From UHGV virus genome UHGV-0125821: 64,000 bases of DNA. One strand, given 5' to 3'. This DNA is from a virus. Numbering within the stretch: position 1 is the first letter of the stretch; each line of letters starts with the position of its first letter. Position numbers and translations under genes: made by a program. The notes below the pieces were generated by a model. The model was not told the DNA's origin, searched no databases, and was given only the letters and a program-made list of their open reading frames with translations. Shown here one piece after another: positions 4,377 through 59,529 of the stretch.

Positions 4377-4769
4377 ATGGAACAAATCAGCAGCGCAGAA
4401 ATTGCGGATATCATGATCAGGGCTGACTGCTATCTGACAGTCACTGAAATTACCACTCTCGCCAAAGAAAAATACCCTCATCTCCATGTTTCACGAGTAA
4501 GTGTAACTAACATCATTCGTCATTTTGTTCGTTCAAGCAGGGCAATCTGTGAGCTTGATGATCGTGTTTACCCACGAAAATACTGGTTGCATGGCCTGAA
4601 CGGATATCAGTTCAAGGTGCGTGGGCGAACCCCTGAATATGGCAGTTTACTGGTTAAAAACTGTAGCAGGAAATCAGTCGAACAGGCGCGAAAAGAGCAA
4701 CGAGAGCTGGTGGACATGGCGAATAAGCTGTGGAATGCCGCCGTTATAAAGCGTGGTGTTGCTTTATGA
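4377..4769 (+). CDS. hypothetical protein, Lpa-like by position upstream of terminase
   Basis: position only; stop overlaps pacA-like start (ATGA). Confidence 0.5.
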   Translation: MEQISSAEIADIMIRADCYLTVTEITTLAKEKYPHLHVSRVSVTNIIRHFVRSSRAICELDDRVYPRKYWLHGLNGYQFKVRGRTPEYGSLLVKNCSRKSVEQARKEQRELVDMANKLWNAAVIKRGVAL

Positions 4770-6130
4770 GTCTGGTTAATTGGGAGGAGCACCGCGCCCG
4801 CTTTATAGCGTTGCGTGAAGAAAAAGGGATCACTGTAAAGGAATACTGTGAGGAGCATGGCCTTAGCTTCAATACAGCCAGAAAGCATCTCAATATGAAA
4901 AAAAATGAGGTGCGGTCGCAGGTAAAGACAACAAAAAAAAGCACCAAATCACCTGAAAAAAAACGGGCGGGAAGAGCAACAAAAAAGCTGGAAGAGGGTG
5001 TAGAAAAAACAAAATTTACAGAAATTGACAATTCGCAGGGCGCAGGTTCTTTCCGAAGTATGCCGAGAAAGAAAACTTCGGATCATGAAAATAATTCAAA
5101 TAATAACAATAAGATAAAAGAATCTGTCAGGAGATCATTGCGCGAAAAAATGGCGAAAATGATCCCCGAAGAAGATAAAAACGCCCCAAAAATTGAGGGA
5201 TCTTCTGCAATGATCCATGACGGTGCTGTGCAGCGAGCCACATTGCCAACTACGAATGTGGCTCGCGATATGATGAAGAACGGCGCAGAAGAACACCTGC
5301 GGTTAGCAATTCAAATGGCGCAAGAGCGCGCACTTCAGTATCAAAGCATTGTTGATCAGGAGGCCGAACGTCTACAGGCGGAAATAGACGCCTTGGGCGA
5401 TAAAGAGCCAGAAGGAATGCACCCTGGGCAGCGCCTTCTCGGTCTAATCAGTGACGCGGCCTACTACATGAATGATTTTATCAGTAGGTTGGCAGCTATA
5501 TATCAGTCCGAACAAAAGCTGCGACAGGGGGATGAAAAGCTTCGTCAGAGCGCTCGCCAGCAAGCATTCAAAGAGGCTGAGGCCAGAGAAAAACTCGAAT
5601 TAGCACGCCTACAGGCCGAACAGCGTGGCAAAGAGATTGAATATCGCATTGGCGCTGACGCACGCGCAGCCAGAGTTATCGCCGCCGCTATACGTATGCG
5701 TGAGCGCGAGGAACTGGATGATATCGGTGTTGCTGAATACATCGAGCGCCAGGGTGTCAGCGTCCCGGCTATCCTCGCGGCGCGCGCGGCGAAAGCTATC
5801 ACTCTTCTCGAACCACCTGTTTCTGACGTCAATGATGTTGATGATGAACAGCTGGACAAAGAGGCAAGGGAGTTTGCAACGCTTCAGGCTAACCATCCGC
5901 AATGGCTGGCAGAGCGCCGGGCGGATGTGGCAACCATTGTTGAAGAATTGGGGTGCGGAGATTACGACCGCAATGGCGAGCGTAAAGCTGGAGAATTCGA
6001 GGCCAACGACGAAGAGCTGGATATTGACCCTTCGGCAACGGCTGAAATTTACGGTGATTATGATGCATCTGATGCAGGGTATGACGCCGGAGATGATGAT
6101 ATCGCGATAGAACCGCCGGAGGATGATTAA
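4766..6130 (+). CDS. pacA: terminase small subunit (PacA-like)
   Basis: precedes and is translationally coupled to large terminase; N-terminal HTH-like region, acidic C-terminus; start moved to ATG 4766. Confidence 0.65.
   Translation: MSLVNWEEHRARFIALREEKGITVKEYCEEHGLSFNTARKHLNMKKNEVRSQVKTTKKSTKSPEKKRAGRATKKLEEGVEKTKFTEIDNSQGAGSFRSMPRKKTSDHENNSNNNNKIKESVRRSLREKMAKMIPEEDKNAPKIEGSSAMIHDGAVQRATLPTTNVARDMMKNGAEEHLRLAIQMAQERALQYQSIVDQEAERLQAEIDALGDKEPEGMHPGQRLLGLISDAAYYMNDFISRLAAIYQSEQKLRQGDEKLRQSARQQAFKEAEAREKLELARLQAEQRGKEIEYRIGADARAARVIAAAIRMREREELDDIGVAEYIERQGVSVPAILAARAAKAITLLEPPVSDVNDVDDEQLDKEAREFATLQANHPQWLAERRADVATIVEELGCGDYDRNGERKAGEFEANDEELDIDPSATAEIYGDYDASDAGYDAGDDDIAIEPPEDD
5080..5217. 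other. candidate pac site: five GATC-containing hexamers in 136 bp
   Basis: GATC at 5081, 5134, 5162, 5200, 5213 inside 5-prime part of pacA-like gene. Confidence 0.4.
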
Positions 6131-7665: not shown

Positions 7666-8703
7666 TTACCAGAGCTTCGCGGCGTACTGCGTTTGGGGGA
7701 ATGTGTATCCGTAACGTTCTTCGATTGCTTTGCCGTATTTTTTACGAGCTTCATTCAGTTTAATGCCGGTCAGGTCGTCTCCAGAGGCCATCATTACGTC
7801 TAACAATTCCAGATCCATTTTATCCAGCCTTGCCATTGCTTCACGTGATGTACGTATCTTACGCTCAATGATATGGCGAATAGCCGGATCGGCATCCTCC
7901 AGCATCTTAGCGGATTTCTGCTTAAGGCTTTCATTGCGAATATCGATGTTCCTTAAGATGTACGACTTCGCAACGTAGCTTGGCTGGTGTTTTTCCAGGT
8001 CACGAACACGATATAAGTTAAAATCGCCGAGAAGGCTGCAAGGTACCGATTCGACGCCAGAATAAATTGTAATGCTCCGGCGTTCACCAACATTATTGAC
8101 AACGGGGATCGTTGTCTTCGGTAGTCTTGCGAAAACCAATGCACCATGTGCGCCAACTCTAAAGCGAGAAAGGGCATTGCTGCCTTCGATGTTTGTTGTC
8201 AGCACAACATCTGTATATGCCTCTTTACGCGCCCGGTAGATCTCGCCTTCAGGCTCAGCTTCAAAGAAGCGCTGTTCTTCTTCAAGATCGCCTACGATTT
8301 GAGAAAAAACCCTATTTTTCAGGCTTTTCTTTATGATTTTGTCGTATTTTTTTAGCAATTGTTCACGTGTAAATGTACGTGTTGTTGTAGCGCTTTGCAC
8401 AACGACATGCGTGCTTTGATTGGTGTCCTCAATGATGAATGGGATCGGAGAATATACAGACTCAACAATGTTCGACGCTTTGCCGTCGGCATCGCGGCAC
8501 ATGTCAACGAAGGCTTTCCATTCAGCAAGACATTTTTCAGCTTCTTCTAATATGTTTTGGTCATGCGTTAATGCAACATGGCGGAATTCCTCGCCAGCAT
8601 AACTGGTATCATGGAAAACAGAGTTTGCGACCACCAGCTCTTTCCACCGTTCAGCGGTTTGCAGGAACCGTTTGTACTCTTTCTCGATCGACTTCTTACT
8701 CAT
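7666..8703 (-). CDS. hypothetical 345-aa protein at the position of the P1 c1 repressor
   Basis: antisense between pacB-like and rox/dre; operator-like motif 20 bp upstream of its start; function not established. Confidence 0.6.
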   Translation of the reverse strand: MSKKSIEKEYKRFLQTAERWKELVVANSVFHDTSYAGEEFRHVALTHDQNILEEAEKCLAEWKAFVDMCRDADGKASNIVESVYSPIPFIIEDTNQSTHVVVQSATTTRTFTREQLLKKYDKIIKKSLKNRVFSQIVGDLEEEQRFFEAEPEGEIYRARKEAYTDVVLTTNIEGSNALSRFRVGAHGALVFARLPKTTIPVVNNVGERRSITIYSGVESVPCSLLGDFNLYRVRDLEKHQPSYVAKSYILRNIDIRNESLKQKSAKMLEDADPAIRHIIERKIRTSREAMARLDKMDLELLDVMMASGDDLTGIKLNEARKKYGKAIEERYGYTFPQTQYAAKLW

Positions 8704-8718
8704 TATTCCTACTCGATT

Positions 8719-8738
8719 TAGTTTTCTAACATAAAATT
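8719..8738. promoter_or_regulatory. operator-like motif copy
   Basis: TTATGTTAGAAAACTAAATC on minus strand. Confidence 0.45.
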
Positions 8739-8914
8739 ACTATGACAAATTTATGTCGAATAACAGAGTGAGTAAAGGATCGAACTGTGATTTTTTGTCA
8801 TCAATTTTAGAAAACCAACCGTAGAAACCACACTTCGCAAATTAAAGACCATGAAGGCAACGTGTTACTGGTCATCATCAATCTATGATGGGTTAAAAAA
8901 AAATCGGCATTTTA

Positions 8915-8946
8915 TAACTTTAAATAATTGGCATTATTTAAAGTTA
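8915..8946. other. rox-like recombination site
   Basis: TAACTTTAAATAATTGGCATTATTTAAAGTTA; reverse complement equals the rox sequence as I recall it. Confidence 0.85.
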
Positions 8947-8955
8947 GGCTATAAT
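8928..8955 (+). promoter_or_regulatory. sigma70-like promoter overlapping rox
   Basis: -35 TTGGCA (8928-8933), 16-bp spacer, -10 TATAAT (8950-8955), pointing toward dre. Confidence 0.45.
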
Positions 8956-9098
8956 CATGTGTAGATGAACAGTATTGACATCACTGAAAATACGTACCTC
9001 GAATCAAAGGCTTGTATTTTGAAAATTAACTTATAGCTACCCTGTCATTTTTATATTTTTCGCGTAGCATCATCTGTATATAGAGGTGAAATAGTTTC

Positions 9099-10127
9099 AT
9101 GAGTGAATTGATTATCTCTGGCAGTTCCGGTGGTTTTCTGCGCAACATTGGCAAAGAGTACCAGGAAGCCGCAGAAAACTTTATGCGGTTCATGAATGAC
9201 CAGGGGGCTTATGCGCCGAATACTCTGCGCGACCTCCGGTTGGTGTTTCATTCCTGGGCGCGCTGGTGTCACGCTCGCCAGCTTGCCTGGTTTCCGATCT
9301 CACCAGAAATGGCCCGCGAGTATTTTCTTCAGTTGCATGATGCCGATCTGGCTTCGACCACCATTGATAAGCACTACGCCATGCTTAACATGCTGCTTTC
9401 TCATTGTGGCCTTCCGCCACTTTCGGATGATAAAAGTGTTTCTCTGGCTATGCGGCGTATCCGGCGCGAAGCGGCAACGGAAAAAGGCGAACGAACAGGC
9501 CAGGCTATACCGCTGCGATGGGACGACCTGAAACTGCTCGACGTCCTGTTGTCCAGGTCAGAACGGCTGGTGGACCTGCGCAACCGGGCTTTTCTCTTTG
9601 TTGCATACAATACGCTGATGCGTATGTCGGAAATCTCGCGTATTCGTGTAGGAGATCTGGACCAAACAGGTGACACCGTCACGCTACATATTTCACACAC
9701 GAAGACAATAACGACCGCCGCCGGGCTTGATAAGGTGCTTTCCCGTCGCACTACTGCTGTGCTGAATGACTGGCTGGATGTTTCCGGGCTTCGTGAACAT
9801 CCTGACGCGGTGCTGTTCCCGCCGATACACCGTAGCAATAAGGCCAGGATTACGACAACGCCCCTTACTGCACCTGCAATGGAGAAAATATTCAGCGACG
9901 CCTGGGTGTTGCTGAATAAAAGGGATGCCGCGCCAAACAAAGGGAGATACCGGACGTGGACCGGGCATAGTGCTCGTGTCGGGGCCGCTATCGATATGGC
10001 TGAAAAGCAGGTGTCTATGGTGGAGATCATGCAGGAAGGAACCTGGAAGAAACCGGAAACACTTATGCGGTATCTGCGCCGTGGCGGTGTGTCTGTGGGG
10101 GCTAATAGCCGCTTGATGGATTCGTAG
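9099..10127 (+). CDS. dre: Cre-family tyrosine recombinase (Dre-like)
   Basis: blocks shared with Cre from memory: SWARWC, WFP, AYNTLMRMSEISRIRV, WTGHSARVGAAIDMA. Confidence 0.9.
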   Translation: MSELIISGSSGGFLRNIGKEYQEAAENFMRFMNDQGAYAPNTLRDLRLVFHSWARWCHARQLAWFPISPEMAREYFLQLHDADLASTTIDKHYAMLNMLLSHCGLPPLSDDKSVSLAMRRIRREAATEKGERTGQAIPLRWDDLKLLDVLLSRSERLVDLRNRAFLFVAYNTLMRMSEISRIRVGDLDQTGDTVTLHISHTKTITTAAGLDKVLSRRTTAVLNDWLDVSGLREHPDAVLFPPIHRSNKARITTTPLTAPAMEKIFSDAWVLLNKRDAAPNKGRYRTWTGHSARVGAAIDMAEKQVSMVEIMQEGTWKKPETLMRYLRRGGVSVGANSRLMDS

Positions 10128-45902: not shown

Positions 45903-47600
45903 GTGAATAAAAACATTCAGCCAGCTCGTGATCGCGAGCGCGAGATTATGAATCGGGCGGCAAGCGTCATGGCTATGACCGTCGATCCGACCACCGATGC
46001 AGCAGGCAACATGATTGCTGACCAGGCAGTAATGATGGAAAACCTGGATAAAGCAATCCAGAAAGTGCCTATGTTTGAAGGCGTAAATCCAGAGGTCGCT
46101 CGTCAGATCACTGGTGGGTGGGCTATGTCTCTGCATGAGTATAAACGTCAACATGGTCATTACCCGGCAAGTGACATCCTGGCGAACGCACACATGGCTC
46201 TTGAGCGCCTGATGACTGAATGTGCCAGTGATACCCATGAAGGCACGGGTAAGGCAATGTTTGAGTCTGTCGCGCAATCAATGCGTAGCTCTGACGGCGT
46301 AATGAAAGTTGCTCAATATGCTGCTCTAATTCTGCCTGCCTCTCTGGGCGCTGCTACCAGTGATGCCTGTACTTTTGTTCCTTGTGATCGTGACGAGTCA
46401 AATATTTATGAACTGGTCAACGTAGCAGGCACAAAATTCGGCACCTTCAACCAAGGTGACGAACTGAATATGCAGTCAGCTGGTGTTTATTCTCAAATGA
46501 AGCGCCTGTATGCCCTTTCCACTAAAGGGGATGGCAGCACCAAAACCTTCCAGTTCAACATCCAAAAATTTGAGGGACAATCCTGCCCGCTTCGCGCTGG
46601 TTATAACAAACTGCTGATCAACCGCAAACCGTCCAAAGTTGACGACGGCGATGGCAACCTTTATTTCAATGCTAAAGACAGCAAAGGTAATACTTTCTCA
46701 GCGACTGCCAAAGTTGCCTATGACACTGGTGTCATTGACATTACATTTACCCAGGCTCCGCCAGAAGGTACTGAAATTGCTGTTCAGGTCGAAATTAACA
46801 TCGAGCGCAATCCAAGCCTGATTCCGGTGATCAACCAGGCTATGCGTAAGTACGAAGTTCGTCCGTCCCAGTACGTACTTGCTTCCGAACACACGGTAAT
46901 GTCCGCATCCGATTTAAGCCGTGAGCACGGCCTTGAATTAGCGGCACTTCAGTTCTCCGCGATGCGTAACTGGATCTCCCATGAAACCGACATCATGCGT
47001 CTGCGCACCCTGGTATTCCATACCGTTTATGGTCGTGAATTTGATGTGGCTCTGCCGGAAGCTCAAAACTATGAGTCCTGGGTCGGCCTCCTGCGTCACG
47101 TAGTAAACGCTCTGTCTCAAGAAATGGCAAATCGTACCCTGACAACGGGTATTCGTGGCGGCTTTGCTGGTAGTGACGCCGCGAACTTCCTGCGCTCTCT
47201 GCCTCCACAGCACTTCCAGATCGCACCAGGTTACGTTCAGTCGCCGTATGTACAGTACATCGGCACCCTGTTTGGCACGATTCGTATTTACGAAGTGCCG
47301 CAACCTGTCTGTGAGCAATTCCAGGCACAGGGATATGACTTCGGGCTGGATGACATCTTCTTCTATGGGCGTGGCGAAGGCATTGGTAAAGCCGGTCTGA
47401 TTGCTGGTGATGCAGTCCCAGCAATCCCTTACGTTCACGAAACCAATCCGTCTCTCGTTAACCGTACCACTCTCTGGGGCAGTGCCATCAACGAAGTACA
47501 TCCTCGCAACGGTGAAAACTACTTCACCCGCCTGCGTCTGACTCGTGCCAAAGAAGGTGCTTTCGACATGCTGACAGGCAAGGTTAACGAAAAAAAGTGA
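45903..47600 (+). CDS. major capsid protein candidate
   Basis: 565 aa, GTG start; assignment by size, late-block context and Ig-like fragments downstream. Confidence 0.55.
   Translation: MNKNIQPARDREREIMNRAASVMAMTVDPTTDAAGNMIADQAVMMENLDKAIQKVPMFEGVNPEVARQITGGWAMSLHEYKRQHGHYPASDILANAHMALERLMTECASDTHEGTGKAMFESVAQSMRSSDGVMKVAQYAALILPASLGAATSDACTFVPCDRDESNIYELVNVAGTKFGTFNQGDELNMQSAGVYSQMKRLYALSTKGDGSTKTFQFNIQKFEGQSCPLRAGYNKLLINRKPSKVDDGDGNLYFNAKDSKGNTFSATAKVAYDTGVIDITFTQAPPEGTEIAVQVEINIERNPSLIPVINQAMRKYEVRPSQYVLASEHTVMSASDLSREHGLELAALQFSAMRNWISHETDIMRLRTLVFHTVYGREFDVALPEAQNYESWVGLLRHVVNALSQEMANRTLTTGIRGGFAGSDAANFLRSLPPQHFQIAPGYVQSPYVQYIGTLFGTIRIYEVPQPVCEQFQAQGYDFGLDDIFFYGRGEGIGKAGLIAGDAVPAIPYVHETNPSLVNRTTLWGSAINEVHPRNGENYFTRLRLTRAKEGAFDMLTGKVNEKK
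47591..47597 (+). other. A_AAA_AAG slippery heptamer at last codons of capsid-candidate gene
   Basis: codons GAA AAA AAG TGA; -1 frame continues 35 codons. Confidence 0.35.
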
Positions 47601-47746: not shown

Positions 47747-48025
47747 ATGGCAAACATTCAAGTAACTATCACGCCATCTGACGCAACAGACAAATCTTTC
47801 ACTGTTGAGTCAGATCACCCTGAAATTGTCCGGGTTGATGGCACTACATGTACCGCTCTTAAGGCCGGGCAGGCAGTGCTGACAATCAAAACAAATGACG
47901 GCAATAAAACCGCACAGTGCACAGTCACTGTTAGGGAGGCACATAAAAGCGTAAGCACCGTCAGTGTTGAACCAACTACGAAAGAAGTAACCGTAGGCGA
48001 TAACTTCACGGTAAGCGAATCCTGA
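47747..48025 (+). CDS. Ig-like (Big_2-type) domain protein
   Basis: TITPSDATDKSFTVESDHPEIVRVDGTTCTALKAGQAVLTIKTNDGNKTAQCTVTV; SD AGGAG. Confidence 0.6.
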   Translation: MANIQVTITPSDATDKSFTVESDHPEIVRVDGTTCTALKAGQAVLTIKTNDGNKTAQCTVTVREAHKSVSTVSVEPTTKEVTVGDNFTVSES

Positions 48026-48092: not shown

Positions 48093-49751
48093 ATGAATAA
48101 GATTAGTTTTTCGGTAGGGCAGGCAGCTGGCGTTGCTGTAATGTCAGTAAATGCTGACGCTACCCTCACCAATACCAGCGGTGGCGCATCCGTCTTTGCT
48201 GGGCTTGTAATATCGCGTCGTGGCGCACCGGGTAAGGTACTGAAAGTTGACGATACGACTTATCAAAGCGTATTAGGTTCACCGATTCACCCTCGCCAGG
48301 GCGCGGCATTTGAACCATATCGCCACGTGGAGCGTGCAGTAAAAGGCGGCTCTGGATATGTCGTTCGAGTTTGCGCTAAAGACATGAAGGTGCCGGGTAT
48401 TTCTGTTTCCGTTGTGGGCAGAGCAAAAGCGGCAAAGGCGAGTAAAGAACTTTCCGTTGAACCAACTGAAACCACAGTAAATCCAGGTGTCACATTAAGC
48501 GTTGGTGTTGCTTCAACTGCAACGACTCAATCAGTGACCTTCACACCCAAAGAGACGCCCCAGATTAAAGGTGAAGAGAAGGCATTATTCTTCATCAAAG
48601 ATGGTGATGCATCTCAAAATCGCACGTTATCACTAACTCGCGATGATGAAGAAAGCGAACTCTTTACGCTGACGCTGAAAGAAAAACAAACCGATGGGTC
48701 CATTGAGGTGCTGGAAAGCCACCAAGTGTCTTTCAATCCAGAAGGCACCAACGACATGGGCCAACCAGCATGGATTCCGACACTGCTTGAAAGCCAGTCC
48801 ACTCGCATTGGTGCCGTACTGGCAGATAATGCAGAAGCATCCGCTGCTCAACTCATTTTTGAGGATGTAGCTTTTGAAGGTGGTACTGATGGAAATCTAT
48901 CCGAAATTAACGCTGCAGACTATCTGGAAGCATTAAAGGTTCTCGAAGCTTCAGAGGTTAATTACACCGCATTGCTGTCATTGGGTTGTTATGACGCATC
49001 CGCCTTAGCCGCAATCAAAAAGCTGGCTGAAGATGTTCGCGTAGACATGTTCTATGACCTGAAGGGCAACCAGACACCTGAAAACGCTATTTCAGAAGCG
49101 AAAAGCCATAGTTTTGGCGGCTCACATCAACCAAGCCGTTACTACTTCCCGCTCTCCTGCCGAGATACTTTCACTGGAATGAATGTCGTCTATGGCATTA
49201 GCTGCGACGCATTCGTAGCGAAGGCAAAAGGAGTGGCGCTGGTACCGGATGTTGGTGGTTGGCATTACGCACCGGCAGGTATATCACGCGCGATTATTGA
49301 TCGACAGAACATTGCCCGAATTCCAAATATCGGTGCAGTTGATCGTGAAGCGTTCGTTCTTGCGCGCATTAATCCAGTTTCAGTTGCTGCTGACGGGTCC
49401 GTTTACATTGACGACTCTTTAACAACTTACAGCAAAAACAACTATCTGCGATTCCAGCATGTGTCTTCCTTGATGAACGCCATCGCCAGAGATTTCTATG
49501 AAGTAGCTCAGGCGATTAAGCACGAACCGGATGGCATTACCAAAGAAACGCTAATGAAAGCAATGACTGAATTGCTTGACCGTTACGTTGCAGCCGGTGC
49601 GCTGGTTACTCCACGAGACAAGTCCCAGGGTGAAGATCCATATGTTGTTCAGGTTGTCCAAAAGGACATCGATCTGTGGGAAGTGTCCTGGTCTGTTTGT
49701 CCGACCGGCACAGCTCGCCGAATCGTCGGTAAGCCAATTCTGATGCGCTGA
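48093..49751 (+). CDS. tail sheath protein candidate
   Basis: 552 aa upstream of tube-like genes. Confidence 0.6.
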   Translation: MNKISFSVGQAAGVAVMSVNADATLTNTSGGASVFAGLVISRRGAPGKVLKVDDTTYQSVLGSPIHPRQGAAFEPYRHVERAVKGGSGYVVRVCAKDMKVPGISVSVVGRAKAAKASKELSVEPTETTVNPGVTLSVGVASTATTQSVTFTPKETPQIKGEEKALFFIKDGDASQNRTLSLTRDDEESELFTLTLKEKQTDGSIEVLESHQVSFNPEGTNDMGQPAWIPTLLESQSTRIGAVLADNAEASAAQLIFEDVAFEGGTDGNLSEINAADYLEALKVLEASEVNYTALLSLGCYDASALAAIKKLAEDVRVDMFYDLKGNQTPENAISEAKSHSFGGSHQPSRYYFPLSCRDTFTGMNVVYGISCDAFVAKAKGVALVPDVGGWHYAPAGISRAIIDRQNIARIPNIGAVDREAFVLARINPVSVAADGSVYIDDSLTTYSKNNYLRFQHVSSLMNAIARDFYEVAQAIKHEPDGITKETLMKAMTELLDRYVAAGALVTPRDKSQGEDPYVVQVVQKDIDLWEVSWSVCPTGTARRIVGKPILMR

Positions 49752-49794
49752 TTTATAACCCCCGCTAAATGATGCGGGGGAGAGAGGTTTGAAT

Positions 49795-50529
49795 ATGAAA
49801 AATTATACTGCTGATCCTTTTATGCGTGCGATTTTCGGTTCTGGCTGCTTTGAAAGCGGTGATAAATCCACGCAGGACAATAATGATAACGCCATGCTGG
49901 AAAGCGCAGGACAGAAAGGAAAGGACACTCAACCAAAGCCCAAAGGCGACATTGAAACCGCGATGATGGAAGCGGTTGAATCCCGTGCACAAGGTGATAT
50001 GCGCAGCCTGGCAGCTTCCATGCTTGCTGGTTGGGTTGAAGATGGTGATCCGGAGGCTGACTCATTTGATGCATTAGCAATCACTATGGCTGGCCTGGCT
50101 GATATCGATGAAGACACCGATTTCACCGATGAGCAAATCGATGCTTATAACGATGCTCTCGCAGCTCTTGCTGATGCAGCTGTTGCGCTTGGCGCTGATC
50201 AGGACGATGTAACCGAAATGATCGACGATGAAGATGACTCAGCTGCCGAACGTGTTTATGACGCTCTTTCCGAAAGCGACACCGACATGATGGAAACAGC
50301 TATTGCCATTTACACCGTTGCTGGTGGTGATAGCGCAATGCTGGAAGCGGTACGTAAAAAAGTGGTTCGTGATGGCAAGGTTACCATCATCCGTAAACGC
50401 CCGCGTCCTCGCCGCATGACGTCATTGCAAAAACAGGCGCTGAAAAAAGCACGCCGCAAAGCACATACATCCGTAGCGAATATCAACCGCAAAAAATCAA
50501 TGCGCATTCGCAAAAAACGCGGTTTGTAA
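49795..50529 (+). CDS. highly acidic protein with strongly basic C-terminal tail
   Basis: Asp/Glu-rich body, C-terminus RKRPRPRRMTSLQKQALKKARRK...; start set at ATG with SD GAGAGG. Confidence 0.6.
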   Translation: MKNYTADPFMRAIFGSGCFESGDKSTQDNNDNAMLESAGQKGKDTQPKPKGDIETAMMEAVESRAQGDMRSLAASMLAGWVEDGDPEADSFDALAITMAGLADIDEDTDFTDEQIDAYNDALAALADAAVALGADQDDVTEMIDDEDDSAAERVYDALSESDTDMMETAIAIYTVAGGDSAMLEAVRKKVVRDGKVTIIRKRPRPRRMTSLQKQALKKARRKAHTSVANINRKKSMRIRKKRGL

Positions 50530-50578: not shown

Positions 50579-51169
50579 TTGATTTGCGGCGCGATAATGC
50601 CTGACGGAATAAGTCCGTTAATGAAGGTTTATATCCTCTCTTCAGAGGATATGGTCGTCGGTTATATCGGTGAAGGATCTACCGCAGAACTGTCATCAAT
50701 GTGGCAATCACCATTTGAAAACCAGTCAGTAGGAGGTTTGCTTGGCGGTATTAGCGCTGCGGCTGGCTCTCTTGCAGATACGCTTCAGACCGCAACCGGC
50801 GTAACAACAAAAACCCTCTTCAACTCAATGCTTGTTTGGGAAGGTCAGCAACCGCCTGAATTTAATCTGGTAATTGATTTCATGGCGACAACGAACGCGC
50901 AACTTGAAGTGAACGCAGCCATTACAGCATTGCTGAAGATGGAATCGCCGGAACTGAACAATGTAGCGCCATTCGGTCGTCGCCCGGAGACAGTAACGTT
51001 AAACATAGGTAGGAACATAGCCCTTACCGACGTTGTTATCAAAAGCGTGAGTTACCAACTGGACGCCCCGCGCACACCGGAAGGCTATTTCACTCATAAC
51101 ACGGTAACCCTGCAATGCAGCGGTAACACATCGATCAACCGTAGCAATATCTCATCTGTTTTTGTGTAG
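50579..51169 (+). CDS. hypothetical tail-associated protein
   Basis: 196-aa ORF between sheath and tube candidates; start uncertain. Confidence 0.55.
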   Translation: MICGAIMPDGISPLMKVYILSSEDMVVGYIGEGSTAELSSMWQSPFENQSVGGLLGGISAAAGSLADTLQTATGVTTKTLFNSMLVWEGQQPPEFNLVIDFMATTNAQLEVNAAITALLKMESPELNNVAPFGRRPETVTLNIGRNIALTDVVIKSVSYQLDAPRTPEGYFTHNTVTLQCSGNTSINRSNISSVFV

Positions 51170-51177
51170 GAGTATTT

Positions 51178-51669
51178 ATGTCCGGTTTTGCAAATACAAA
51201 AGCCGATATGGCCTTTCTAAAATCCCGGTTTAATAAAAACCTGGCTGCAGGCGAAAAACTTATTGGTTCTGAATATTGGATGACCATTAAGGGTTACGAA
51301 CATCTGTCTGTACTAGTTCGTACAGCTCAGTTACCAGAAATGACACGTGAAGATGTGGAGGATTACGCCCCTGGTGGCATGAAATTCAACCAGCACGGAC
51401 CATTACGCAACTCTGGTGAATTTCAGGTCACATGCGCGGAAACTATCGAAGGCGCAGTTCTCGCCGCTGTAAAACAGATGGTATACGGAAAAGAATATCT
51501 GGAAATTACCTTACAGGCGGCGGCTGAATCGAATAGCGGTAACCATAAAGGTCTGACCCGCACATATTCTCATTGCAAAGTGTATTCCGACGCCGTGGAC
51601 TTCTCATCCGAAGACGTAACGGCGGTCGTTAAACCTTCCCTGCGCATTGTTTACAACTGGGCGGAATAA
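51178..51669 (+). CDS. tail tube protein candidate
   Basis: 163 aa, size and position typical of contractile-tail tube. Confidence 0.55.
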   Translation: MSGFANTKADMAFLKSRFNKNLAAGEKLIGSEYWMTIKGYEHLSVLVRTAQLPEMTREDVEDYAPGGMKFNQHGPLRNSGEFQVTCAETIEGAVLAAVKQMVYGKEYLEITLQAAAESNSGNHKGLTRTYSHCKVYSDAVDFSSEDVTAVVKPSLRIVYNWAE

Positions 51670-51723: not shown

Positions 51724-52275
51724 ATGACACCAATTGAATTATTAGAAAGCGTTAAAGAGCGATTTAATCCGCTGCTTGTGCGTGAAGAAGAAACGTTGAA
51801 AGCATTCCTGATCAAAGCTCTGACCACGTATCAGGACAGGGCAGGGGTAGTGAAAACGTTAAAACTTGAAAAAGCTGGTGGTACTGCAATCCCGTTGCCA
51901 GAAGATTATCTCTCTCTGGTTCATGTTACCGACAACAACGGCTTGTTGGTCTATTCGGATGAATTATCCGGATTTATTGAATTAGAGCTAACAGGTTCAG
52001 AACGCTGGCCTTTTCGAATGCTGTATCTGGTTAATCTACGCGACAGAGAGCTGGATGAATGGCAAGTGCCTCCTGCAATCATTGGAATGCTGGAGGAATA
52101 TCTGGAGGCGCTTATCAATGTAAGAAATGTCGCCCGGCAGCGTAGAGCGTCCATCGACGGGAAATTTGACTACTCCGATCTGCCCGATGAAGCCACGCTA
52201 TATGCCCGCGTGCAGGAGATTGAGGAAAAAATGTCCTCAAACCGGGCCATTATTCCGGGGGCTACCATTTTTTAA
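51724..52275 (+). CDS. hypothetical tail assembly protein
   Basis: 183-aa ORF. Confidence 0.55.
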   Translation: MTPIELLESVKERFNPLLVREEETLKAFLIKALTTYQDRAGVVKTLKLEKAGGTAIPLPEDYLSLVHVTDNNGLLVYSDELSGFIELELTGSERWPFRMLYLVNLRDRELDEWQVPPAIIGMLEEYLEALINVRNVARQRRASIDGKFDYSDLPDEATLYARVQEIEEKMSSNRAIIPGATIF

Positions 52276-52290: not shown

Positions 52291-52998
52291 GTGAGTATTT
52301 TCAGCAGCGTTGGTAGAACGTTGACCACCGCATTGTCATTTAACACGAAATCATTCACCAGCAACCTCATTAGCGACATTCTTGATAAAGCCATATCAGG
52401 CGGCGGGGTAAGCGGGAATTACAGTAGCGATATTGCCTACGGGAAAAATATTGTTGCTGCCGCTATGCGTATCCGTTACGCCCAGGGGTGGCAGTGGACC
52501 GTTGAAGTGGATGGCCTGAACGGCTTCGATATGTTCGTGAAGGATATCACCTACAGCAGTGGAAACATTGAGACAGAAAGCAAGGTGATCGGCAGCGTAG
52601 AATTCAGCAAGCCAACCTATGTTAGCGCCGGACCGGTCACTATGACCGTGAGGGATACCGAAGATGGCAAGATCATGGACTGGTTCAAAGAGCGTCGTTC
52701 TCGTGTAACAAATCCTGATGGAACAATAAACCTTCCTCCTGAATATCTGATGAAAATCCGTGTCTACCGGGTGACTCAGGACGGCGGAAAAGAACTGGAA
52801 GAAGAAATGCGCGTATTTCCTACGCAACTTGGGGAAATCACACGCTCACGTGATCAGGTGTCAGAGTTCTTGTCATACCCAATCACTTTCCAGAAATACA
52901 CATCCGCAGGCTCAGGTGTTTCTGCTTTGGTCAACGGTGCCGCTGGCATGGCTACAAGTGCGTTAAAGGGGGCTGTGAGTGGAGTGATCAAATTCTGA
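52291..52998 (+). CDS. hypothetical tail-associated protein
   Basis: GTG start with SD GGAGG. Confidence 0.55.
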   Translation: MSIFSSVGRTLTTALSFNTKSFTSNLISDILDKAISGGGVSGNYSSDIAYGKNIVAAAMRIRYAQGWQWTVEVDGLNGFDMFVKDITYSSGNIETESKVIGSVEFSKPTYVSAGPVTMTVRDTEDGKIMDWFKERRSRVTNPDGTINLPPEYLMKIRVYRVTQDGGKELEEEMRVFPTQLGEITRSRDQVSEFLSYPITFQKYTSAGSGVSALVNGAAGMATSALKGAVSGVIKF

Positions 52999-53087: not shown

Positions 53088-53384
53088 TTGAGGGCATTTT
53101 TTACATCATCAATTCATCTGTAATGAAGGCATTCTTTACACATTTCAATAATATCAATCAGTTAACACAGTGAATGATAATAAAAAAGCGCAATAAGAAT
53201 GCACGATACGCACGATATTGGTTGAGGGCGATTTTTACATAGTCCTTACATATCAATACGTTATATAAAAACACAACTTGCTAATAACAAGATACATGCA
53301 ATTAAGATGTAAAAATTGCCCTCAATTGCCGATCGTTAAGGGCAAATTCTACACCTTGAGAGGGGTGTAAAAATTGCCCTTAAG
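53088..53384. repeat. iteron array downstream of repA (incA-like), five copies in both orientations
   Basis: TTGAGGGCATTTTTTACATC, TTGAGGGCGATTTTTACAT and relatives in AT-rich DNA; last copy overlaps repA stop. Confidence 0.6.
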
Positions 53385-54135
53385 ACTGCTGATAGGTAAA
53401 TTTTATCCTGGTAACTTTGCCGCCTTCCGTCACCTCTGAGAAGACTATTTTCATTTTTGTATTTTTTTCAATCTCTGCTACAGCCTTCGTTAAAAAACTT
53501 CTCTTAAATTCGGCATACCGCTGATAGCTTTTTGGTAACCCATAACGCTCCCGCATCCATTCGACGCCAAGTATGGCAAAGCCGCTTCCATCATCCTTCC
53601 TGTACTGGCATAAGGACTCATAAAGCCGCATAGAATAAGGATTTGTAAGGCGAGATACTTCGGTAAAATTCAGCCTTGTGAATCTCTTATCAAGCAGAGT
53701 AAAAAACGGCATGAGATATGGATTAAGATGAATAATGTAAGTCCCGCGACGTGGTGAATAGGCATCCTTAATCATCCAGGGATAAGACTCATAACTGTCT
53801 TCTGATTCGGTCGATTCATCAGGGTTATATATCGTAACTTTCTTCTCGCTAAGACCTGAAATGGCCTTACGAATATCCTTGCTGGCTTCAGCAGAGGGCA
53901 AATTATACATCTCTGCATATTCGTTGACCGTCAACTCACAGGCACCTGAACCAAGAACGCCATCCTTAGAAGCATAGCGAAGTCTTCCCACCACAATAAA
54001 CAACAGTCGCTTTTGGTCGCGAGTCAGGTGATAAGCAGCCTCCGTGATCTCATTGGCTTGTGCCAAACTACGACTAATAGGTGTCGCTGACTCAATCAGG
54101 CTGACGGCTTTTGCTGTTAATTCCGCTCTGTTCAT
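53380..54135 (-). CDS. repA: iteron-binding replication initiator RepA (Rep_3-like)
   Basis: TNPYSMRLYESLCQYR signature-like block; flanked by iterons; start set at internal ATG. Confidence 0.75.
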   Translation of the reverse strand: MNRAELTAKAVSLIESATPISRSLAQANEITEAAYHLTRDQKRLLFIVVGRLRYASKDGVLGSGACELTVNEYAEMYNLPSAEASKDIRKAISGLSEKKVTIYNPDESTESEDSYESYPWMIKDAYSPRRGTYIIHLNPYLMPFFTLLDKRFTRLNFTEVSRLTNPYSMRLYESLCQYRKDDGSGFAILGVEWMRERYGLPKSYQRYAEFKRSFLTKAVAEIEKNTKMKIVFSEVTEGGKVTRIKFTYQQS

Positions 54136-54159
54136 AACCCTGTGTGATCCTTCAAATGG

Positions 54160-54277
54160 TGAGGGCAATTTTTACATCACTTTGAGGGCAATTACTACAC
54201 CTTTTGAGGGCAAATCTTACACCTTCTGAGGGCAAATCTTACACCGACCGTATTTAATTGAGGGCAAATCTTACACC
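54160..54277. repeat. iteron array upstream of repA (incC/oriR-like), five direct copies
   Basis: TTGAGGGCAAATCTTACACC at 22-bp spacing; sixth inverted copy near 54400. Confidence 0.7.
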
Positions 54278-55359: not shown

Positions 55360-58300
55360 ATGGATATCAGCCCGTTAGTGACGTTGAACAATTGCCACAA
55401 TGGCGAGCACTCCATATGTCAAAAGCCCTGGAAGAAAAATACAAAGCTCAAGCCGGGAAACGTTGTCGCCGCTGGTAAAAGAGAGGTTATTTTGAAAGAG
55501 AATAAAGACCGTATCGCAATAATTGACGCTATTCAGGGGGCGAGCACAAACGAACTTAAGGCTCTTGCTGAGATCAAAGATGCCATTCTTTCTGGGGCAA
55601 GCACCATAACTCAACAGGCCGAAAGGCAAGGCAGAGTTAGCAACAGACTATCACGCAGGCGTAAAGAGTACGAGCAAAGTACATCTGATAGCGTTAGAGA
55701 TGTCCAAACTAACCCATATAAAAAACGTCTCCCTGCTAAAAAGGAAAGGGCACCGTTAAACCAAACCGTGGACCGCTCTATCGTTGCAACGAACACACCA
55801 GAAAGTGTTCGCTCCGTGCAATCACGTCAGACCATCCGAAAATCGGACGGTTTTATACCGGTAGCTGCTAATTCAGCCCCTCTTGAACCACAATCCCCCC
55901 AAAGTCTAAAAGGCCCGCTGCGGGATAGTAATGGACGTTTTGTATCCCAAAAAAGCAATGAGGATGTAGCCAGAAAAAAAGAATTGCAGAACGCACGTAA
56001 AGCCGACGCAAAATTACAAGCTGGCTTTCTCAGAAAGCTAGGTTCCATTATGGGGGTAGATGGCAATCGGTCTTCCAGTGAAGAGTCTTTAACAAATGCA
56101 GCTGGTGTCGGTGCTGGTGGGCCGTTCTGGATGGCGGCTCGTGGCATGTACGACATAACTAAAGAGATCACAGGTAAAGCAGAATCTCTTAAAGAATGGG
56201 TAGAAAAGGGGAAAAAAGAAACATCAACCTCGAAAGCAATATCACCAGTAATTACTTATCCGGCGGCGGTGAATTCTCAAAAAGCAACATCTGCAAAAGC
56301 GTTCAATAACGCTGTTGAGACAAAATCCGCACAAGCAGTAGAAGAGCAAACCAAAATCCTTCAGACCAATGACAACAAAATAATTGATGGTCTGGAAAAT
56401 GTTTCTGACGAGATAGTTAAGCTTCGGAAATCAGTGTCTTCTGGAAATAAGTTCGGCTTAAGTGATCTCTGGAAAAATCGAGCAAGCAGAAGAAATAAAA
56501 TCAATATTGGTGATCAGACGGGAAAAAATAAACGGAACAAATCGAAAAGGAAAGGACGCAATCTTGGGAAAAAAGCACTCTCCGCTGGCGAAAAAGTTGC
56601 TGCCGGTAGCGCTGCGGCTGGCACTGGTGTCGGAGCAGCAAAAGTAGTTAAAAATAAGATCAGCAAACCCAAAGATGTAAGCACTATCAGCGATACATCA
56701 AAGGGGATTGCAAAGGAAACAAAAAATACTGCTAAGGCCGTGAAGTCAGCTGGTGTTGTGGCTGAAGATGCCACCATTAAAACCGGCGAAGCCATTGCAA
56801 AGAAAAAAACTGAATCTGTAGCCCTCAAAAGTGCTGCAAAAATAGGTGTTAAATCAGCAGCATCCACAGCGGCAAGAGCGGTCCCTATCATCGGTTCGCT
56901 GGCAATGGCTGGATATGACGCCATAGATGGTTACACAGATACAGAGGCGCAAAAGGCAGCCTTTGGCTTAAGTGATGATAATGCTGTATCCACACAGCAA
57001 AAAACCGCTTATGCAGCAGCTAATGTGCTTGATATGGGCGGCTTAGTGTCGGGTGCAACCAACCTAATAGGCAAAGGGATTTCTGCGTTAGGCTTTGAAG
57101 GGGCAGGTGAAAAACTTCAGAATTTTAACACTGGAGATATTGCTCGTGACATAAATAGTTCTATAGACACGACAAAAACCGTATTCAGCAGCCTAAAAGA
57201 ATCGTTCTCATCAAGCAGCGAAGGCACTGCGCAGGTTAAGAAAGCCGTTGAAGATGGCACCAAGCAAACGGTAACCGCAATTAATAACCTGGGCCGACAG
57301 CTACAAGGCGGGCGTGATGGTGAAGATGGTGTTGGTGAGCACGGGTATACTTCCCCGGCTGAATTTAATGCGCCTACCAGTAACACCATTGCTGCGGATC
57401 TGAATATTGGTGGCAGCAACGCTAAAAACCGCAATTATCGGAATAATAATCTCGGGAACCTTGTTTTCGCCAATCAGGAAGGGGCGACGCTGGAAGCACC
57501 GAATGCAAAAGGTGAACAGCGTTTTGCTCGATTCAACACGCCTGAAGAAGGGATCAGGGCGTTGGCAAACCAAGTGTCAAGCTATTACAACGGCACCAGT
57601 GCCGCAGCAGGACATCAGAAGTTACAGACGGTATCAAGCATCATTTCCAAATGGGCGCCGCCAAATGAGAACAATACCAATCAATATATTGATAACGTCA
57701 GTAAATATCTTGGCGTCTCGCCTAATGAAAAAATAGACGTCAGCAACCCAGAGGTTATGACGCAATTAGTTCGTGCAATAGCGACGAAAGAAGGTGGAAA
57801 CCCGGCGGTTAACAATGAGTTCATAAAGAATGCTCTTGGGGCATTCAACGCAAATACTGGTCGTTGGGAAGGGCGGTTCTCCGATGAAACATTGGCGCGG
57901 CTTAATAAAATTCAGCAAGAGAATGGCGGTCAACTAATTGCTCGTGATTCGCAATATAGCGTTGGTCGCAAGGTGAAATATGCTGATGGTACATCTCCAG
58001 CACAACCTGTATTGAATGCAGTTCCAACAGCAACACCTAAGCCAATTGAAGTTGCACAACATGCCCAGGCCGCCAAAAAGCCACAAAAAAAAGGTAACCA
58101 ACCACAACCGATTAATCCAGAGAACGCTGATGTTAATACCGGCTCTCCATCGAGTTTGCTTGAGCGGTTAATCGCAATAAATGAAAGCGGAATCAGTGGT
58201 GCAAGTAATTTATTTGGCGGCGCGGCTACCAGCCTTGCTGGAACAAGTCTGGACCTGGTAAAGGATTTTGCGTCGGCTACTTCGTTTGGTTCTATATCTT

Positions 58301-59529
58301 CGCTTTCCGAAAAAGCGAAAGGAATGGATCAGGCTCTTACTGAAAAGATATCCGGCTTAACCGGTAAATCTTTTGGATTTAAAAAAGCTTCTCAAGTGGC
58401 TGATATCGCAACAGCCATACAACAAAAACGCACTGTTAATCACGATACAGAAATCATTGATCTACTTCCGGGAGATCAAGTATCCCCTTCTACTCCGAAA
58501 ACTCCACAGCAGGAGCAGGCTCTAGCAATCAGCCAGGCTATGGCGGGCTTTTCGTCTGCAGCGCCAGCACCGAAAACCCCACAGCAGGAGCAGGCTCTAG
58601 CAATCAGCCAGGCTATGGCGGGCTTTTCATCTGCAGCGCCAGCACCGAAAACCCCACAGCAGGAGCAGGCTCTAGCAATCAGTCAGGCTATGGCGGGCTT
58701 TTCGTCTGCAGCGCCAGCACCGAAAACCCCACAGCAGGAGCAGGCTCTAGCAATCAACCAGGCTATGGCGGGCTTTTCGTCTGCAGCACCAGCACCGAAA
58801 ACCCCACAGCAGGAGCAGGCTCTAGCAATCAACCAGGCTATGTCGGGAGCTGCGCCAGTAGTTACCTCTGGAAAACGAACTATCACGGCACCAAGTGATG
58901 TGCAGATTTATGACAACGGCTACAAGGTGGTTACAGGTGAGGATAAGAGCTTCTTTGGTTCGCTATTTGATTCCACGGTGTCAGGGCTTAAACAGGCAGG
59001 AACCGCAGTAATTCCTGCCGTTGGCGATAACCTTTCACGACTTGTTGGGGGGATTGATAGTACAGGGATATTGAACGATCTTGTAATGCAGTCTACTGGG
59101 CAGAATAGTGCGATTGCGCGAGCTATTAGCCCATTAACAAGAAATGTTGGAGACTGGCTGAATGGGGGGATTCAACAAACCGCTAATAGCATTAGGGGAA
59201 TAGCAACTGGTGCCAATAACGCCATATTTGGCTCTGCTTCAGCTGTGCAAGAACCTTTTCTTGCTATGCCGCCACAACTCCCTACTGTAACCGATCTCGC
59301 ACGAAGCGGAATAAGACAACCATTAACTACTGACACTATAAATAACGATCCTGCTATGTTGAAGGCGCTGGATAACATCTGCTCTATCCTGAACGATCTG
59401 CTGAATGTGAACAAGAACAATACAAAAGGCGATCCGGATAATGTTGTCAAAACATCGCAGCCGCAGCCGCGACCACGTGCGAGCACAACTATTAATGACC
59501 AGTCGCTGGATGCTCTGCTTGAGGATTAA
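55360..59529 (+). CDS. tail tape measure protein candidate
   Basis: 1389 aa, Ala/Gly/Lys-rich, upstream of baseplate genes; contains 25-aa tandem repeats. Confidence 0.7.
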   Translation: MDISPLVTLNNCHNGEHSICQKPWKKNTKLKPGNVVAAGKREVILKENKDRIAIIDAIQGASTNELKALAEIKDAILSGASTITQQAERQGRVSNRLSRRRKEYEQSTSDSVRDVQTNPYKKRLPAKKERAPLNQTVDRSIVATNTPESVRSVQSRQTIRKSDGFIPVAANSAPLEPQSPQSLKGPLRDSNGRFVSQKSNEDVARKKELQNARKADAKLQAGFLRKLGSIMGVDGNRSSSEESLTNAAGVGAGGPFWMAARGMYDITKEITGKAESLKEWVEKGKKETSTSKAISPVITYPAAVNSQKATSAKAFNNAVETKSAQAVEEQTKILQTNDNKIIDGLENVSDEIVKLRKSVSSGNKFGLSDLWKNRASRRNKINIGDQTGKNKRNKSKRKGRNLGKKALSAGEKVAAGSAAAGTGVGAAKVVKNKISKPKDVSTISDTSKGIAKETKNTAKAVKSAGVVAEDATIKTGEAIAKKKTESVALKSAAKIGVKSAASTAARAVPIIGSLAMAGYDAIDGYTDTEAQKAAFGLSDDNAVSTQQKTAYAAANVLDMGGLVSGATNLIGKGISALGFEGAGEKLQNFNTGDIARDINSSIDTTKTVFSSLKESFSSSSEGTAQVKKAVEDGTKQTVTAINNLGRQLQGGRDGEDGVGEHGYTSPAEFNAPTSNTIAADLNIGGSNAKNRNYRNNNLGNLVFANQEGATLEAPNAKGEQRFARFNTPEEGIRALANQVSSYYNGTSAAAGHQKLQTVSSIISKWAPPNENNTNQYIDNVSKYLGVSPNEKIDVSNPEVMTQLVRAIATKEGGNPAVNNEFIKNALGAFNANTGRWEGRFSDETLARLNKIQQENGGQLIARDSQYSVGRKVKYADGTSPAQPVLNAVPTATPKPIEVAQHAQAAKKPQKKGNQPQPINPENADVNTGSPSSLLERLIAINESGISGASNLFGGAATSLAGTSLDLVKDFASATSFGSISSLSEKAKGMDQALTEKISGLTGKSFGFKKASQVADIATAIQQKRTVNHDTEIIDLLPGDQVSPSTPKTPQQEQALAISQAMAGFSSAAPAPKTPQQEQALAISQAMAGFSSAAPAPKTPQQEQALAISQAMAGFSSAAPAPKTPQQEQALAINQAMAGFSSAAPAPKTPQQEQALAINQAMSGAAPVVTSGKRTITAPSDVQIYDNGYKVVTGEDKSFFGSLFDSTVSGLKQAGTAVIPAVGDNLSRLVGGIDSTGILNDLVMQSTGQNSAIARAISPLTRNVGDWLNGGIQQTANSIRGIATGANNAIFGSASAVQEPFLAMPPQLPTVTDLARSGIRQPLTTDTINNDPAMLKALDNICSILNDLLNVNKNNTKGDPDNVVKTSQPQPRPRASTTINDQSLDALLED
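58495..58869 (+). repeat. in-frame 75-bp tandem repeat, about 4.6 copies
   Basis: unit encodes PKTPQQEQALAISQAMAGFSSAAPA; copies differ by 1-3 substitutions. Confidence 0.85.

Follow-up and report, generated by a model that had tools for sequence, protein, structure and literature searches.

Head-core proteins that are cut by a maturation protease are well known as a kind, and in phage T4 they include the acidic core proteins gp22, gp67 and gp68, which are substrates of the T4 gp21 protease. The T4 gp22 scaffold is an acidic protein of 269 amino acids (aa) with an isoelectric point (pI) of 4.6, whose cut sites read IFE↓S, VFE↓A and LFE↓S (arrows mark the cut). The herpesvirus scaffold pre-VP22a/UL26.5 carries a C-terminal capsid-binding tail that is removed at the maturational M-site, and the P22 scaffold gp8, which is uncleaved, has a basic C-terminal helix-turn-helix domain that binds the coat protein. 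In phage P1, the protease Pro is a relative of the T4 gp21 prohead protease and the capsid protein is also T4-like (PMC9024508); no separate P1 scaffolding protein has been identified according to the 2022 proteome and 2026 cryo-electron microscopy (cryo-EM) papers (PMC9024508, PMC12810830). Here, we describe an open reading frame (ORF) at positions 49795-50529 of a 64,000-nucleotide stretch of UHGV virus genome UHGV-0125821, referred to in its entirety as the window. The product of this ORF is very probably a prohead-internal protein processed by Pro, and we favor, with clearly less assurance, a role as a scaffold or core protein of the D6/P1-type myophage head.

The window corresponds to a D6-like P1-family phage-plasmid (E. 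coli, Salmonella), and the 11 kb around ORF 49795-50529 are 99-99.9% identical to many plasmids of ~90 kb. The ORF starts with an ATG at 49795, preceded by a GAGAGG ribosome-binding site ~7 nt upstream, and ends with a TAA at 50527-50529. Its 244-aa product shares 99.6% aa identity with D6 orf47, for which the D6 label reads "putative baseplate protein, similar to P1 gene 21." With P1 gp21, a 271-aa protein labeled "baseplate or tail tube" in its GenBank record, the identity is about 40-44%. The layout of P1 gp21 matches that of the window protein, with a leader followed by an acidic body and then a basic tail, and the two genes occupy the same operon position. The match to phrog_1053 covers the full length (residues 1-244, E 6e-85), but PHROG 1053 is itself annotated as "unknown function." We refer to this family as gp21, after the P1 gene; it is distinct from the T4 protease of the same number. 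Its features in the window, together with the aligned site in the capsid protein, are as follows.

49795..50529, + strand: complete ORF of 244 aa, ortholog of P1 gp21 and D6 orf47, PHROG 1053
49795..49902, + strand: N-terminal leader, residues 1-36, ending at the invariant E36; a predicted propeptide or targeting segment that the cut at site 1 would remove
49891..49905, + strand: predicted protease site 1, A33-M-L-E36↓S37; AMLE↓S is identical to the P1 capsid site
49960..49974, + strand: predicted protease site 2, A56-M-M-E59↓A60, where the helical domain starts
49972..50346, + strand: acidic all-helical domain, residues 60-184, ~13 kDa, net charge -32, pI 4.05
50101..50136, + strand: degenerate EF-hand-like loop, D103 to Q114 (DIDEDTDFTDEQ), between two helices
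50335..50349, + strand: predicted protease site 3, A181-M-L-E184↓A185, in the linker that joins the acidic domain to the basic module
50347..50526, + strand: basic C-terminal module, residues 185-244, 7.1 kDa, net charge +24, the best-conserved part of the family
46254..46268, + strand: capsid maturation site, A118-M-F-E121↓S122, aligned with the P1 E120↓S121 cleavage

The charges of the protein (31 D and 15 E, 18 K and 17 R in total) are sharply separated along the chain. Residues 61-190 hold 24 D and 11 E against 2 K and 4 R (pI 4.05), whereas residues 200-244 hold 9 K and 11 R and no D or E at all (pI ~12). This agrees with the strongly acidic body and 45-residue Arg/Lys-dense C-terminal tail described in the initial annotation, which had however also spoken of long Asp/Glu runs; the runs are modest, and since the longest uninterrupted one has only 5 residues the acidity is a matter of density. 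The same annotation placed the gene between sheath and tube candidates. The sheath gene does lie upstream, but the next gene downstream is pmgG and the true tube gene, bplB, is one further. ORF 49795-50529 has the highest charge polarity of any ORF in the window (six frames, ORFs of at least 100 aa). Its most acidic 125-aa stretch carries a net charge of -33 and its most basic 45-aa stretch one of +20, and 0 of 20,000 shuffles of its residues matched this polarity. The runner-up on the same measure (-26/+13) is ORF 4766-6130 on the + strand, which encodes 454 aa and, judged from its position, is probably the homolog of pacA, a terminase subunit.

The window protein carries the cleavage motif of the head maturation protease three times. 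In P1, cleavage of the capsid protein at NKAMLE120↓S121 has been mapped by Edman sequencing (PMC9024508), and the P1 site, NKAMLE↓SVAAE, aligns with GKAMFE↓SVAQS in the capsid proteins of D6 and the window. The cryo-EM model of P1 DarA begins at residue 70, and residues 1-69 have been proposed to be removed by Pro (PMC12810830); the sequence DLLE68↓A69 adjoins the first modeled residue, and the aligned place in D6 DarA reads EAMFE↓SITT. The corresponding sites in the window protein are NAMLE36↓SAG, TAMME59↓AVE and SAMLE184↓AVRKK, the same motif as that at which P1 DarA is cut. In an alignment of 80 family sequences E36 and E184 are invariant. Site 2 is the weakest, with E59 conserved in at least 90% of the D6/P1-type clade and unconserved in a distant clade in which Asp replaces Glu (D-type).

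When the motif was defined strictly as [AS]M[LFM]E↓[SA], a six-frame scan of the 91-kb D6 genome returned eight occurrences in exactly four ORFs, namely one in the capsid protein and one in DarA, both at the aligned sites, three in the C-terminal region of Pro, and three in the gp21 ortholog. Within the window, the strict motif occurs only in the capsid gene and in ORF 49795-50529. The composition of the protein itself would yield 0.005 strict motifs compared with the three observed, and none of 100,000 shuffles gave three. Cleavage at the three predicted sites would produce fragments 1-36, 37-59, 60-184 (13 kDa, net -32) and 185-244 (7 kDa, net +24). A shared N-terminal targeting motif was also looked for in DarB, DarA, Ulx, DdrA/B and Hdf, and none was seen. 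The C-terminal third of Pro, which lies outside the window (D6 genome 22494-23492), itself contains three to four copies of the cleavage motif, as does P1 Pro. The D6 copies are MLE↓S, MME↓S and MLE↓S, those of D-type relatives LLD↓S and VLD↓S, a pattern which implies that Pro may autoprocess a scaffold-like tail.

The sites in gp21 and in the capsid protein vary together across the family. We collected 160 viral contigs, which contained 98 unique loci encoding both a capsid homolog and a gp21 homolog, and compared the residue aligned with the Glu preceding the capsid cut (P1 position) with gp21 columns E36 and E184. The capsid site and gp21 sites 1 and 3 were all Glu in 44 loci and all Asp in 54, and they disagreed in none. 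Asp likewise replaces Glu in the C-terminal tail of Pro (LLD↓S, VLD↓A) and at the N-terminal site of DarA (LLLD↓SV) in the D-type loci. In all, at least five sites in four proteins have switched between Glu and Asp together. Four proteins sharing one lineage-specific motif is what a common protease predicts.

The family is also widespread and almost fixed in its position. It comprises 481 cluster representatives (50% identity, E<=1e-3) and is found in Beta- and Gammaproteobacteria (among them Pseudomonas, Nitrosomonas, Collimonas, Burkholderia, Acinetobacter, Aeromonas and Avibacterium), and the order capsid-sheath-gp21 is almost invariant across family loci. In some distant loci the order is pro-capsid-sheath-gp21-bplB-hdf-darA, such that head genes flank gp21 on both sides. 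When loci were selected by their capsid protein alone (22-25% identity to that of D6), 60 of 66 had a gp21-family member ~2.1 kb downstream. This near-universal and syntenic presence in distant relatives is the pattern of a core morphogenetic gene rather than that of an accessory anti-defense gene. The other six loci (L262, L264, L267-L269 at about 8627-9163, and L245) had no family member within the 7 kb examined. In two of them, L262 and L269, the capsid and sheath genes flank an ORF of 169 aa whose product is very acidic (31 D/E) but ends in a short basic stretch; it may be an analogous protein in another position.

The predicted structure divides the protein where the cleavage sites divide it. 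An AlphaFold2 (AF2) model had a mean predicted local distance difference test (pLDDT) score of 79. In this model residues 1-47 are disordered apart from a short helix at 8-15 (pLDDT <50 over 17-47), and the acidic body is formed by helices 51-83, 88-98, 112-131, 136-145, 148-159 and 163-176 (pLDDT about 90-97). After a linker at 181-185 (pLDDT <50), the basic module folds as a beta hairpin (strands 187-192 and 195-200) followed by helices 210-222 and 226-241 (pLDDT 82-94). Sites 1 and 3 fall in the low-confidence linkers that bound the domains, and in the model these linkers are presumably exposed. The model had no match in the PDB by Foldseek and nothing significant in a BFVD fold search; a gp21-family profile searched against PDB sequences returned noise only (PKS13, E 0.56). 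Searches of the protein against Pfam and PADLOC each returned nothing, and NCBI-style annotation assigned no function.

The basic module is the most conserved part of the protein, with R192, G194, K201, Q212 and K218 invariant in the 80-sequence alignment. Conservation of this kind, together with the patterning of the invariant residues and the predicted fold, suggests a specific docking element. A profile of the module searched against 5.8 billion proteins found just short fragments and truncated calls of the same family and no fusions to other protein types that might point to a partner. Two family members, P0195 (408 aa) and P0250 (412 aa), have the module twice in tandem in one protein, from which it appears to be a separable unit. 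P0250 also has a protease-type motif, MILE↓S, immediately before one copy of the module, and its N-terminal Cys-rich segment resembles a zinc ribbon.

Within the acidic domain, the EF-hand-like loop of the window protein (DIDEDTDFTDEQ) departs from the canonical pattern DxDxDGxIxxxE in having T at loop position 6 and Q at position 12. The canonical pattern is found in 45 of 144 family representatives (e.g., DFDKDGEISPDE and DIDSDGELTEEE; 0.55 expected in shuffles), which fall in the range P0135-P0263 and have the loop between two helices of the acidic domain, compared with 0 of 120 in the D6/P1 clade. Pfam EF-hand matches on distant family members are weak (E about 0.04). The pattern suggests that a phage head-core protein may bind Ca2+ or Mg2+ in many lineages.

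Published data on P1 are consistent with a protein that is not part of the finished tail. The P1 virion proteome lists gp22 (ORF 57) and PmgG (ORF 55) but not gp21 (ORF 56), which is also unmentioned in the supplement (PMC9024508). The 2026 whole-virion cryo-EM study assigns every tail and baseplate density, with BplB as the tube, Tub as the tube initiator and PmgG as the tube linker, and never names gp21 (PMC12810830). Independent depositions in the PDB include P1 Gp23, PmgG and BplB chains; no chain there matches the gp21 family. Since it is missing from these structures, gp21 is not a resolved structural part of the tail or baseplate. With respect to the proteome, the processed P1 ortholog would yield essentially no fully tryptic peptide of 7-30 aa, and because its acidic body is a single 102-aa tryptic peptide that analysis was nearly blind to gp21 fragments. 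The literature we searched contained no proposal that gp21 is a Pro substrate or a scaffold.

We propose that the protein would be a product of the capsid-sheath late operon, which is highly expressed, and would be built into the prohead, where Pro, a T4-gp21-type maturation protease, would cut it after Glu36 and Glu184 and probably also after Glu59. The sites would be the same [LM]-x-E↓[SA] motif that Pro uses on the capsid protein, DarA and itself, and the four products would be a leader of 36 residues, a short spacer, the folded acidic domain (13 kDa) and the basic module (7 kDa). The basic module may dock to a conserved partner in the shell, for instance the inner surface of the capsid, the delta domain of the capsid protein or the portal, while the acidic domains would fill the prohead interior. 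The cut at site 3 would then free the body from its anchor, allowing the core to be cleared or rearranged as DNA enters. A scaffold or core function is favored because T4-type heads use acidic, protease-cleaved core proteins, because P1-like phages offer no other candidate and because the gene lies in the high-expression capsid/sheath operon. PmgS (D6 genome 9085-10308, just outside the window) bears the D6 annotation "putative prohead scaffolding protein" and was considered for this role and set aside. It has no Pro-type motif, and the P1 pmg/upf knockout set yielded five essential genes, of which pmgS is not one; both points make its scaffold annotation look weak.

The resemblance to the T4 core is close in several respects. 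Like gp22, gp67 and gp68, the window protein is acidic, helical and of similar size, belongs to a head whose capsid protein and protease are both of the T4 type, and has predicted cuts of the hydrophobic-x-E↓S/A type. It differs in that gp22 has ~10 sites and is chopped to small peptides, whereas two to three cuts here would release intact domains; gp22 also lacks a basic C-terminal module, and its gene lies between the protease and capsid genes rather than after the sheath gene. An hhalign comparison with T4 gp22 detected no homology (probability 0.7%), so the likeness is one of analogy and not of family membership. Analogies to other scaffolds are likewise without homology. As in the herpesvirus scaffold, a C-terminal anchor would be joined to the body via a protease site, and the predicted docking element may be likened to the basic helical hairpin at the C-terminus of P22 gp8. 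The module described here is distinct from both in its 60-residue length, its beta hairpin and its charge of +24, and its binding to the capsid is a prediction.

Several points weigh against a processed scaffold. The gene always follows the sheath gene and precedes tube-like genes, and cleavage of gp21 is a prediction from sequence motifs. The switch between Glu and Asp probably reflects one or a few evolutionary events, and since the split may be a single ancestral event the 98 loci are not independent tests. The acidic domain is a folded 13-kDa unit with no conserved internal cut sites, which favors retention in the head, and as modeled it is not obviously able to exit a closed shell as the chopped T4 gp22 does. 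No sequence or fold similarity to any known scaffold was found (PDB, BFVD, hhalign against T4 gp22). Lobocka is said to label P1 gene 21 "baseplate or tail tube," and that label reportedly rests on electron microscopy by Walker & Walker in 1983, in which amber mutants had heads and no tails. It is a conjecture of ours that the old gene 21 phenotype arose from polarity on, or misassignment to, the downstream essential genes pmgG/bplB. Finally, the 120-residue delta domain of the P1 capsid protein has been deemed sufficient as a scaffold (PMC9024508, PMC12810830).

The alternative that survives best, although we think it unlikely, is that the protein is processed by Pro in the prohead but that its fragments stay in the mature head and act after assembly. 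The basic 60-residue peptide might then condense or neutralize DNA, as do adenovirus VII/mu or the T4 internal proteins, and the acidic domain might be ejected along with the DNA, serving as a mimic of DNA or a decoy that counters restriction or other defenses that bind DNA. All of the evidence for processing applies equally to this explanation, under which the compact, folded acidic domain without conserved internal cut sites is readily accommodated. The leader and its cleavage site resemble the targeting sequences that are cleaved from T4 internal proteins, and those proteins stay in the head; more broadly, T4 IPI-III and Alt and the P1 Dar proteins, which are packaged in the head and injected, have leaders ending in a prohead-protease site as predicted here. 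The charge of the acidic domain (-32 over 125 aa) is in what we take to be the range of DNA mimics such as Ocr. That the P1 proteome lacks gp21 carries no information on this point, since processing leaves essentially no usable tryptic peptides, and P1 heads already package the anti-restriction system Dar (PMC9024508, PMC12810830). On the other hand, the papers examined here do not link known dar phenotypes in P1 to gene 21 (PMC9024508, PMC12810830). The T4 internal proteins, Alt and the Dar proteins are accessory and variable, whereas gp21 is a near-universal, syntenic gene of the structural operon at 22-25% capsid identity, unlike fast-evolving accessory genes. The invariant patterned residues and predicted fold of the basic module also suggest docking to a protein rather than generic coating of DNA.

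The initial annotation had judged the composition to be unlike that of a tail part and like that of a packaged internal protein or a DNA-mimic anti-restriction protein. The idea of an internal head protein that is no tail part is borne out by the motif shared with the capsid protein, DarA and Pro, by the co-variation between Glu and Asp and by the lack of gp21 in the P1 tail and baseplate structures. The DNA-mimic role is unsupported. Ocr (T7 gp0.3) and ArdA are comparable to the acidic domain in size and negative charge density, but they are early, cytoplasmic and non-structural, in contrast to a late-operon gene product with protease sites and a basic module. The window protein has no sequence, profile or fold similarity to Ocr or ArdA or to any anti-defense family, with no match in Pfam, PADLOC or PDB sequences. 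Structure prediction, which had been suggested as a check, gave no match to an Ocr or ArdA fold that places carboxylates in a B-DNA-like array. A scaffold or chaperone missing from virions had been named as the result that would speak against the initial annotation, and our favored explanation is close to this, although the processed fragments would go almost unseen in tryptic LC-MS/MS of virions.

A related possibility, which we regard as improbable, is that both the acidic domain, which in many lineages has an EF-hand-type cation-binding loop, and the +24 DNA-binding peptide are kept in the head as a pair of opposite charges, with the peptide condensing the genome and the acidic domain ejected as a decoy. 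If true, P1-like phages would have an essential and universally conserved module for counter-defense and condensation packaged in their heads, which would have been hidden for 40 years behind a tail annotation and unseen by tryptic proteomics.

A tail role is unlikely. In the version that agrees with the standing label, the protein would be a non-structural assembly factor, such as an acidic chaperone for tube or sheath polymerization or for baseplate initiation, and the protease motifs would be coincidental. The record label of "baseplate or tail tube" and the conserved position between the sheath gene and pmgG/bplB fit such a factor, tail assembly chaperones are often acidic, and a chaperone would likewise be missing from virion structures. 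It would, however, leave unexplained why the motif is otherwise limited to the capsid protein, DarA and Pro, why two of the sites switch between Glu and Asp with the capsid site in 98 of 98 loci, and why the sites lie in exposed linkers that exactly bound the domains. In addition, PmgB, encoded just upstream of the tape-measure gene, has already been proposed as the tail chaperone, and gp21 shows no frameshift or G/GT-like feature. The AF2 model, a helical domain with a basic module, has no tube or baseplate-like fold, and the tail role annotated for P1 gp21 is contradicted by the structures and the proteome. Chance composition in a fast-evolving filler ORF of no specific function, for which one could cite the lack of a function in any database, is effectively refuted by conservation (481 cluster representatives, invariant residues, a confident AF2 fold, conserved synteny and 0/20,000 shuffles at the observed polarity).

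The surrounding genes are those expected of the family: the ORF follows the capsid and sheath genes and precedes pmgG and bplB, as in P1. No terminator or sigma-70 promoter was predicted between the ORF and its neighboring genes. The neighboring features are as follows.

45903..47600, + strand: major capsid protein, homologous to P1 gp23; its gene is the first in the same late operon; phrog_1014, PDB 9ukm_A "Gp23" E 1e-163
47747..48025, + strand: small Ig-like ORF (D6 orf49), 92 aa, with a bacterial Ig-like Big_2 domain
48093..49751, + strand: tail sheath gene (P1 gp22 homolog), upstream neighbor; phrog_1036 E 1e-196 and D6 annotation
49759..49780, + strand: GC-rich hairpin with a 7-bp stem and an 8-nt loop; minimum free energy -17.9 kcal/mol, z -3.0 compared with shuffles
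50597..51169, + strand: pmgG homolog (tube-linking baseplate protein), downstream neighbor; phrog_1114, PDB 9ay5_G "PmgG" E 1e-39
51178..51669, + strand: bplB homolog (true tail tube protein); phrog_1120, PDB 8jan_a "BplB" E 2e-59
51724..52275: pmgC, from PHROGs and D6 annotation
52291..52998: tub, from PHROGs and D6 annotation

The hairpin at 49759-49780 (CCCCCGC, 8 nt, GCGGGGG) is located between the sheath stop codon and the ribosome-binding site of the ORF. It has no U-tract, and a terminator scan gave no call there; it could be an mRNA stabilizer or an attenuator that sets the ratio of capsid and sheath to downstream products. The Big_2 ORF at 47747-48025 separates the capsid and sheath genes, a place where P1 has no gene. 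P1 is described as having no decoration protein (PMC9024508), and this ORF could encode a capsid or tail decoration protein specific to the D6 type.

Two other observations concern the tail genes further downstream. The Sit-like tape-measure/transglycosylase gene (55360-59529) contains 4.7 copies of a 75-bp repeat at 58495-58847 (97% matches), which encodes PKTPQQEQALAISQAMAGFSSAAPA, and its product has 1389 aa in the window compared with 1260 aa in the D6 homolog. A gene for a RepB/Rep_3-type plasmid replication initiator (53380-54168, - strand) lies between tub and pmgB-sit, where it interrupts a stretch that is a single tail operon in P1.

As a classic model phage, P1 serves as the prototype for a large group of phage-plasmids through which resistance genes spread, and its head assembly has an acknowledged gap in that no separate scaffold is known. 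What is new here is the family itself as a head-core protein, with its bipolar domain plan, its detachable basic module and its EF-hand-like loop. We consider the significance moderate: the finding corrects the annotation of a model phage and makes the question of the missing scaffold testable, and it reveals no new principle. If it is true, the 40-year-old assignment to "baseplate or tail tube" would be wrong, and the missing head-core component would have a named candidate. The specificity of P1-type proteases ([LM]-x-E/D↓[S/A], switching by lineage) would be defined well enough for the prediction of substrates, and leaders ending in a Pro site could act as cargo-targeting or release signals in P1-based delivery. 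The PHROG 1053 family as a whole, with its 481 cluster representatives, would gain a testable function.

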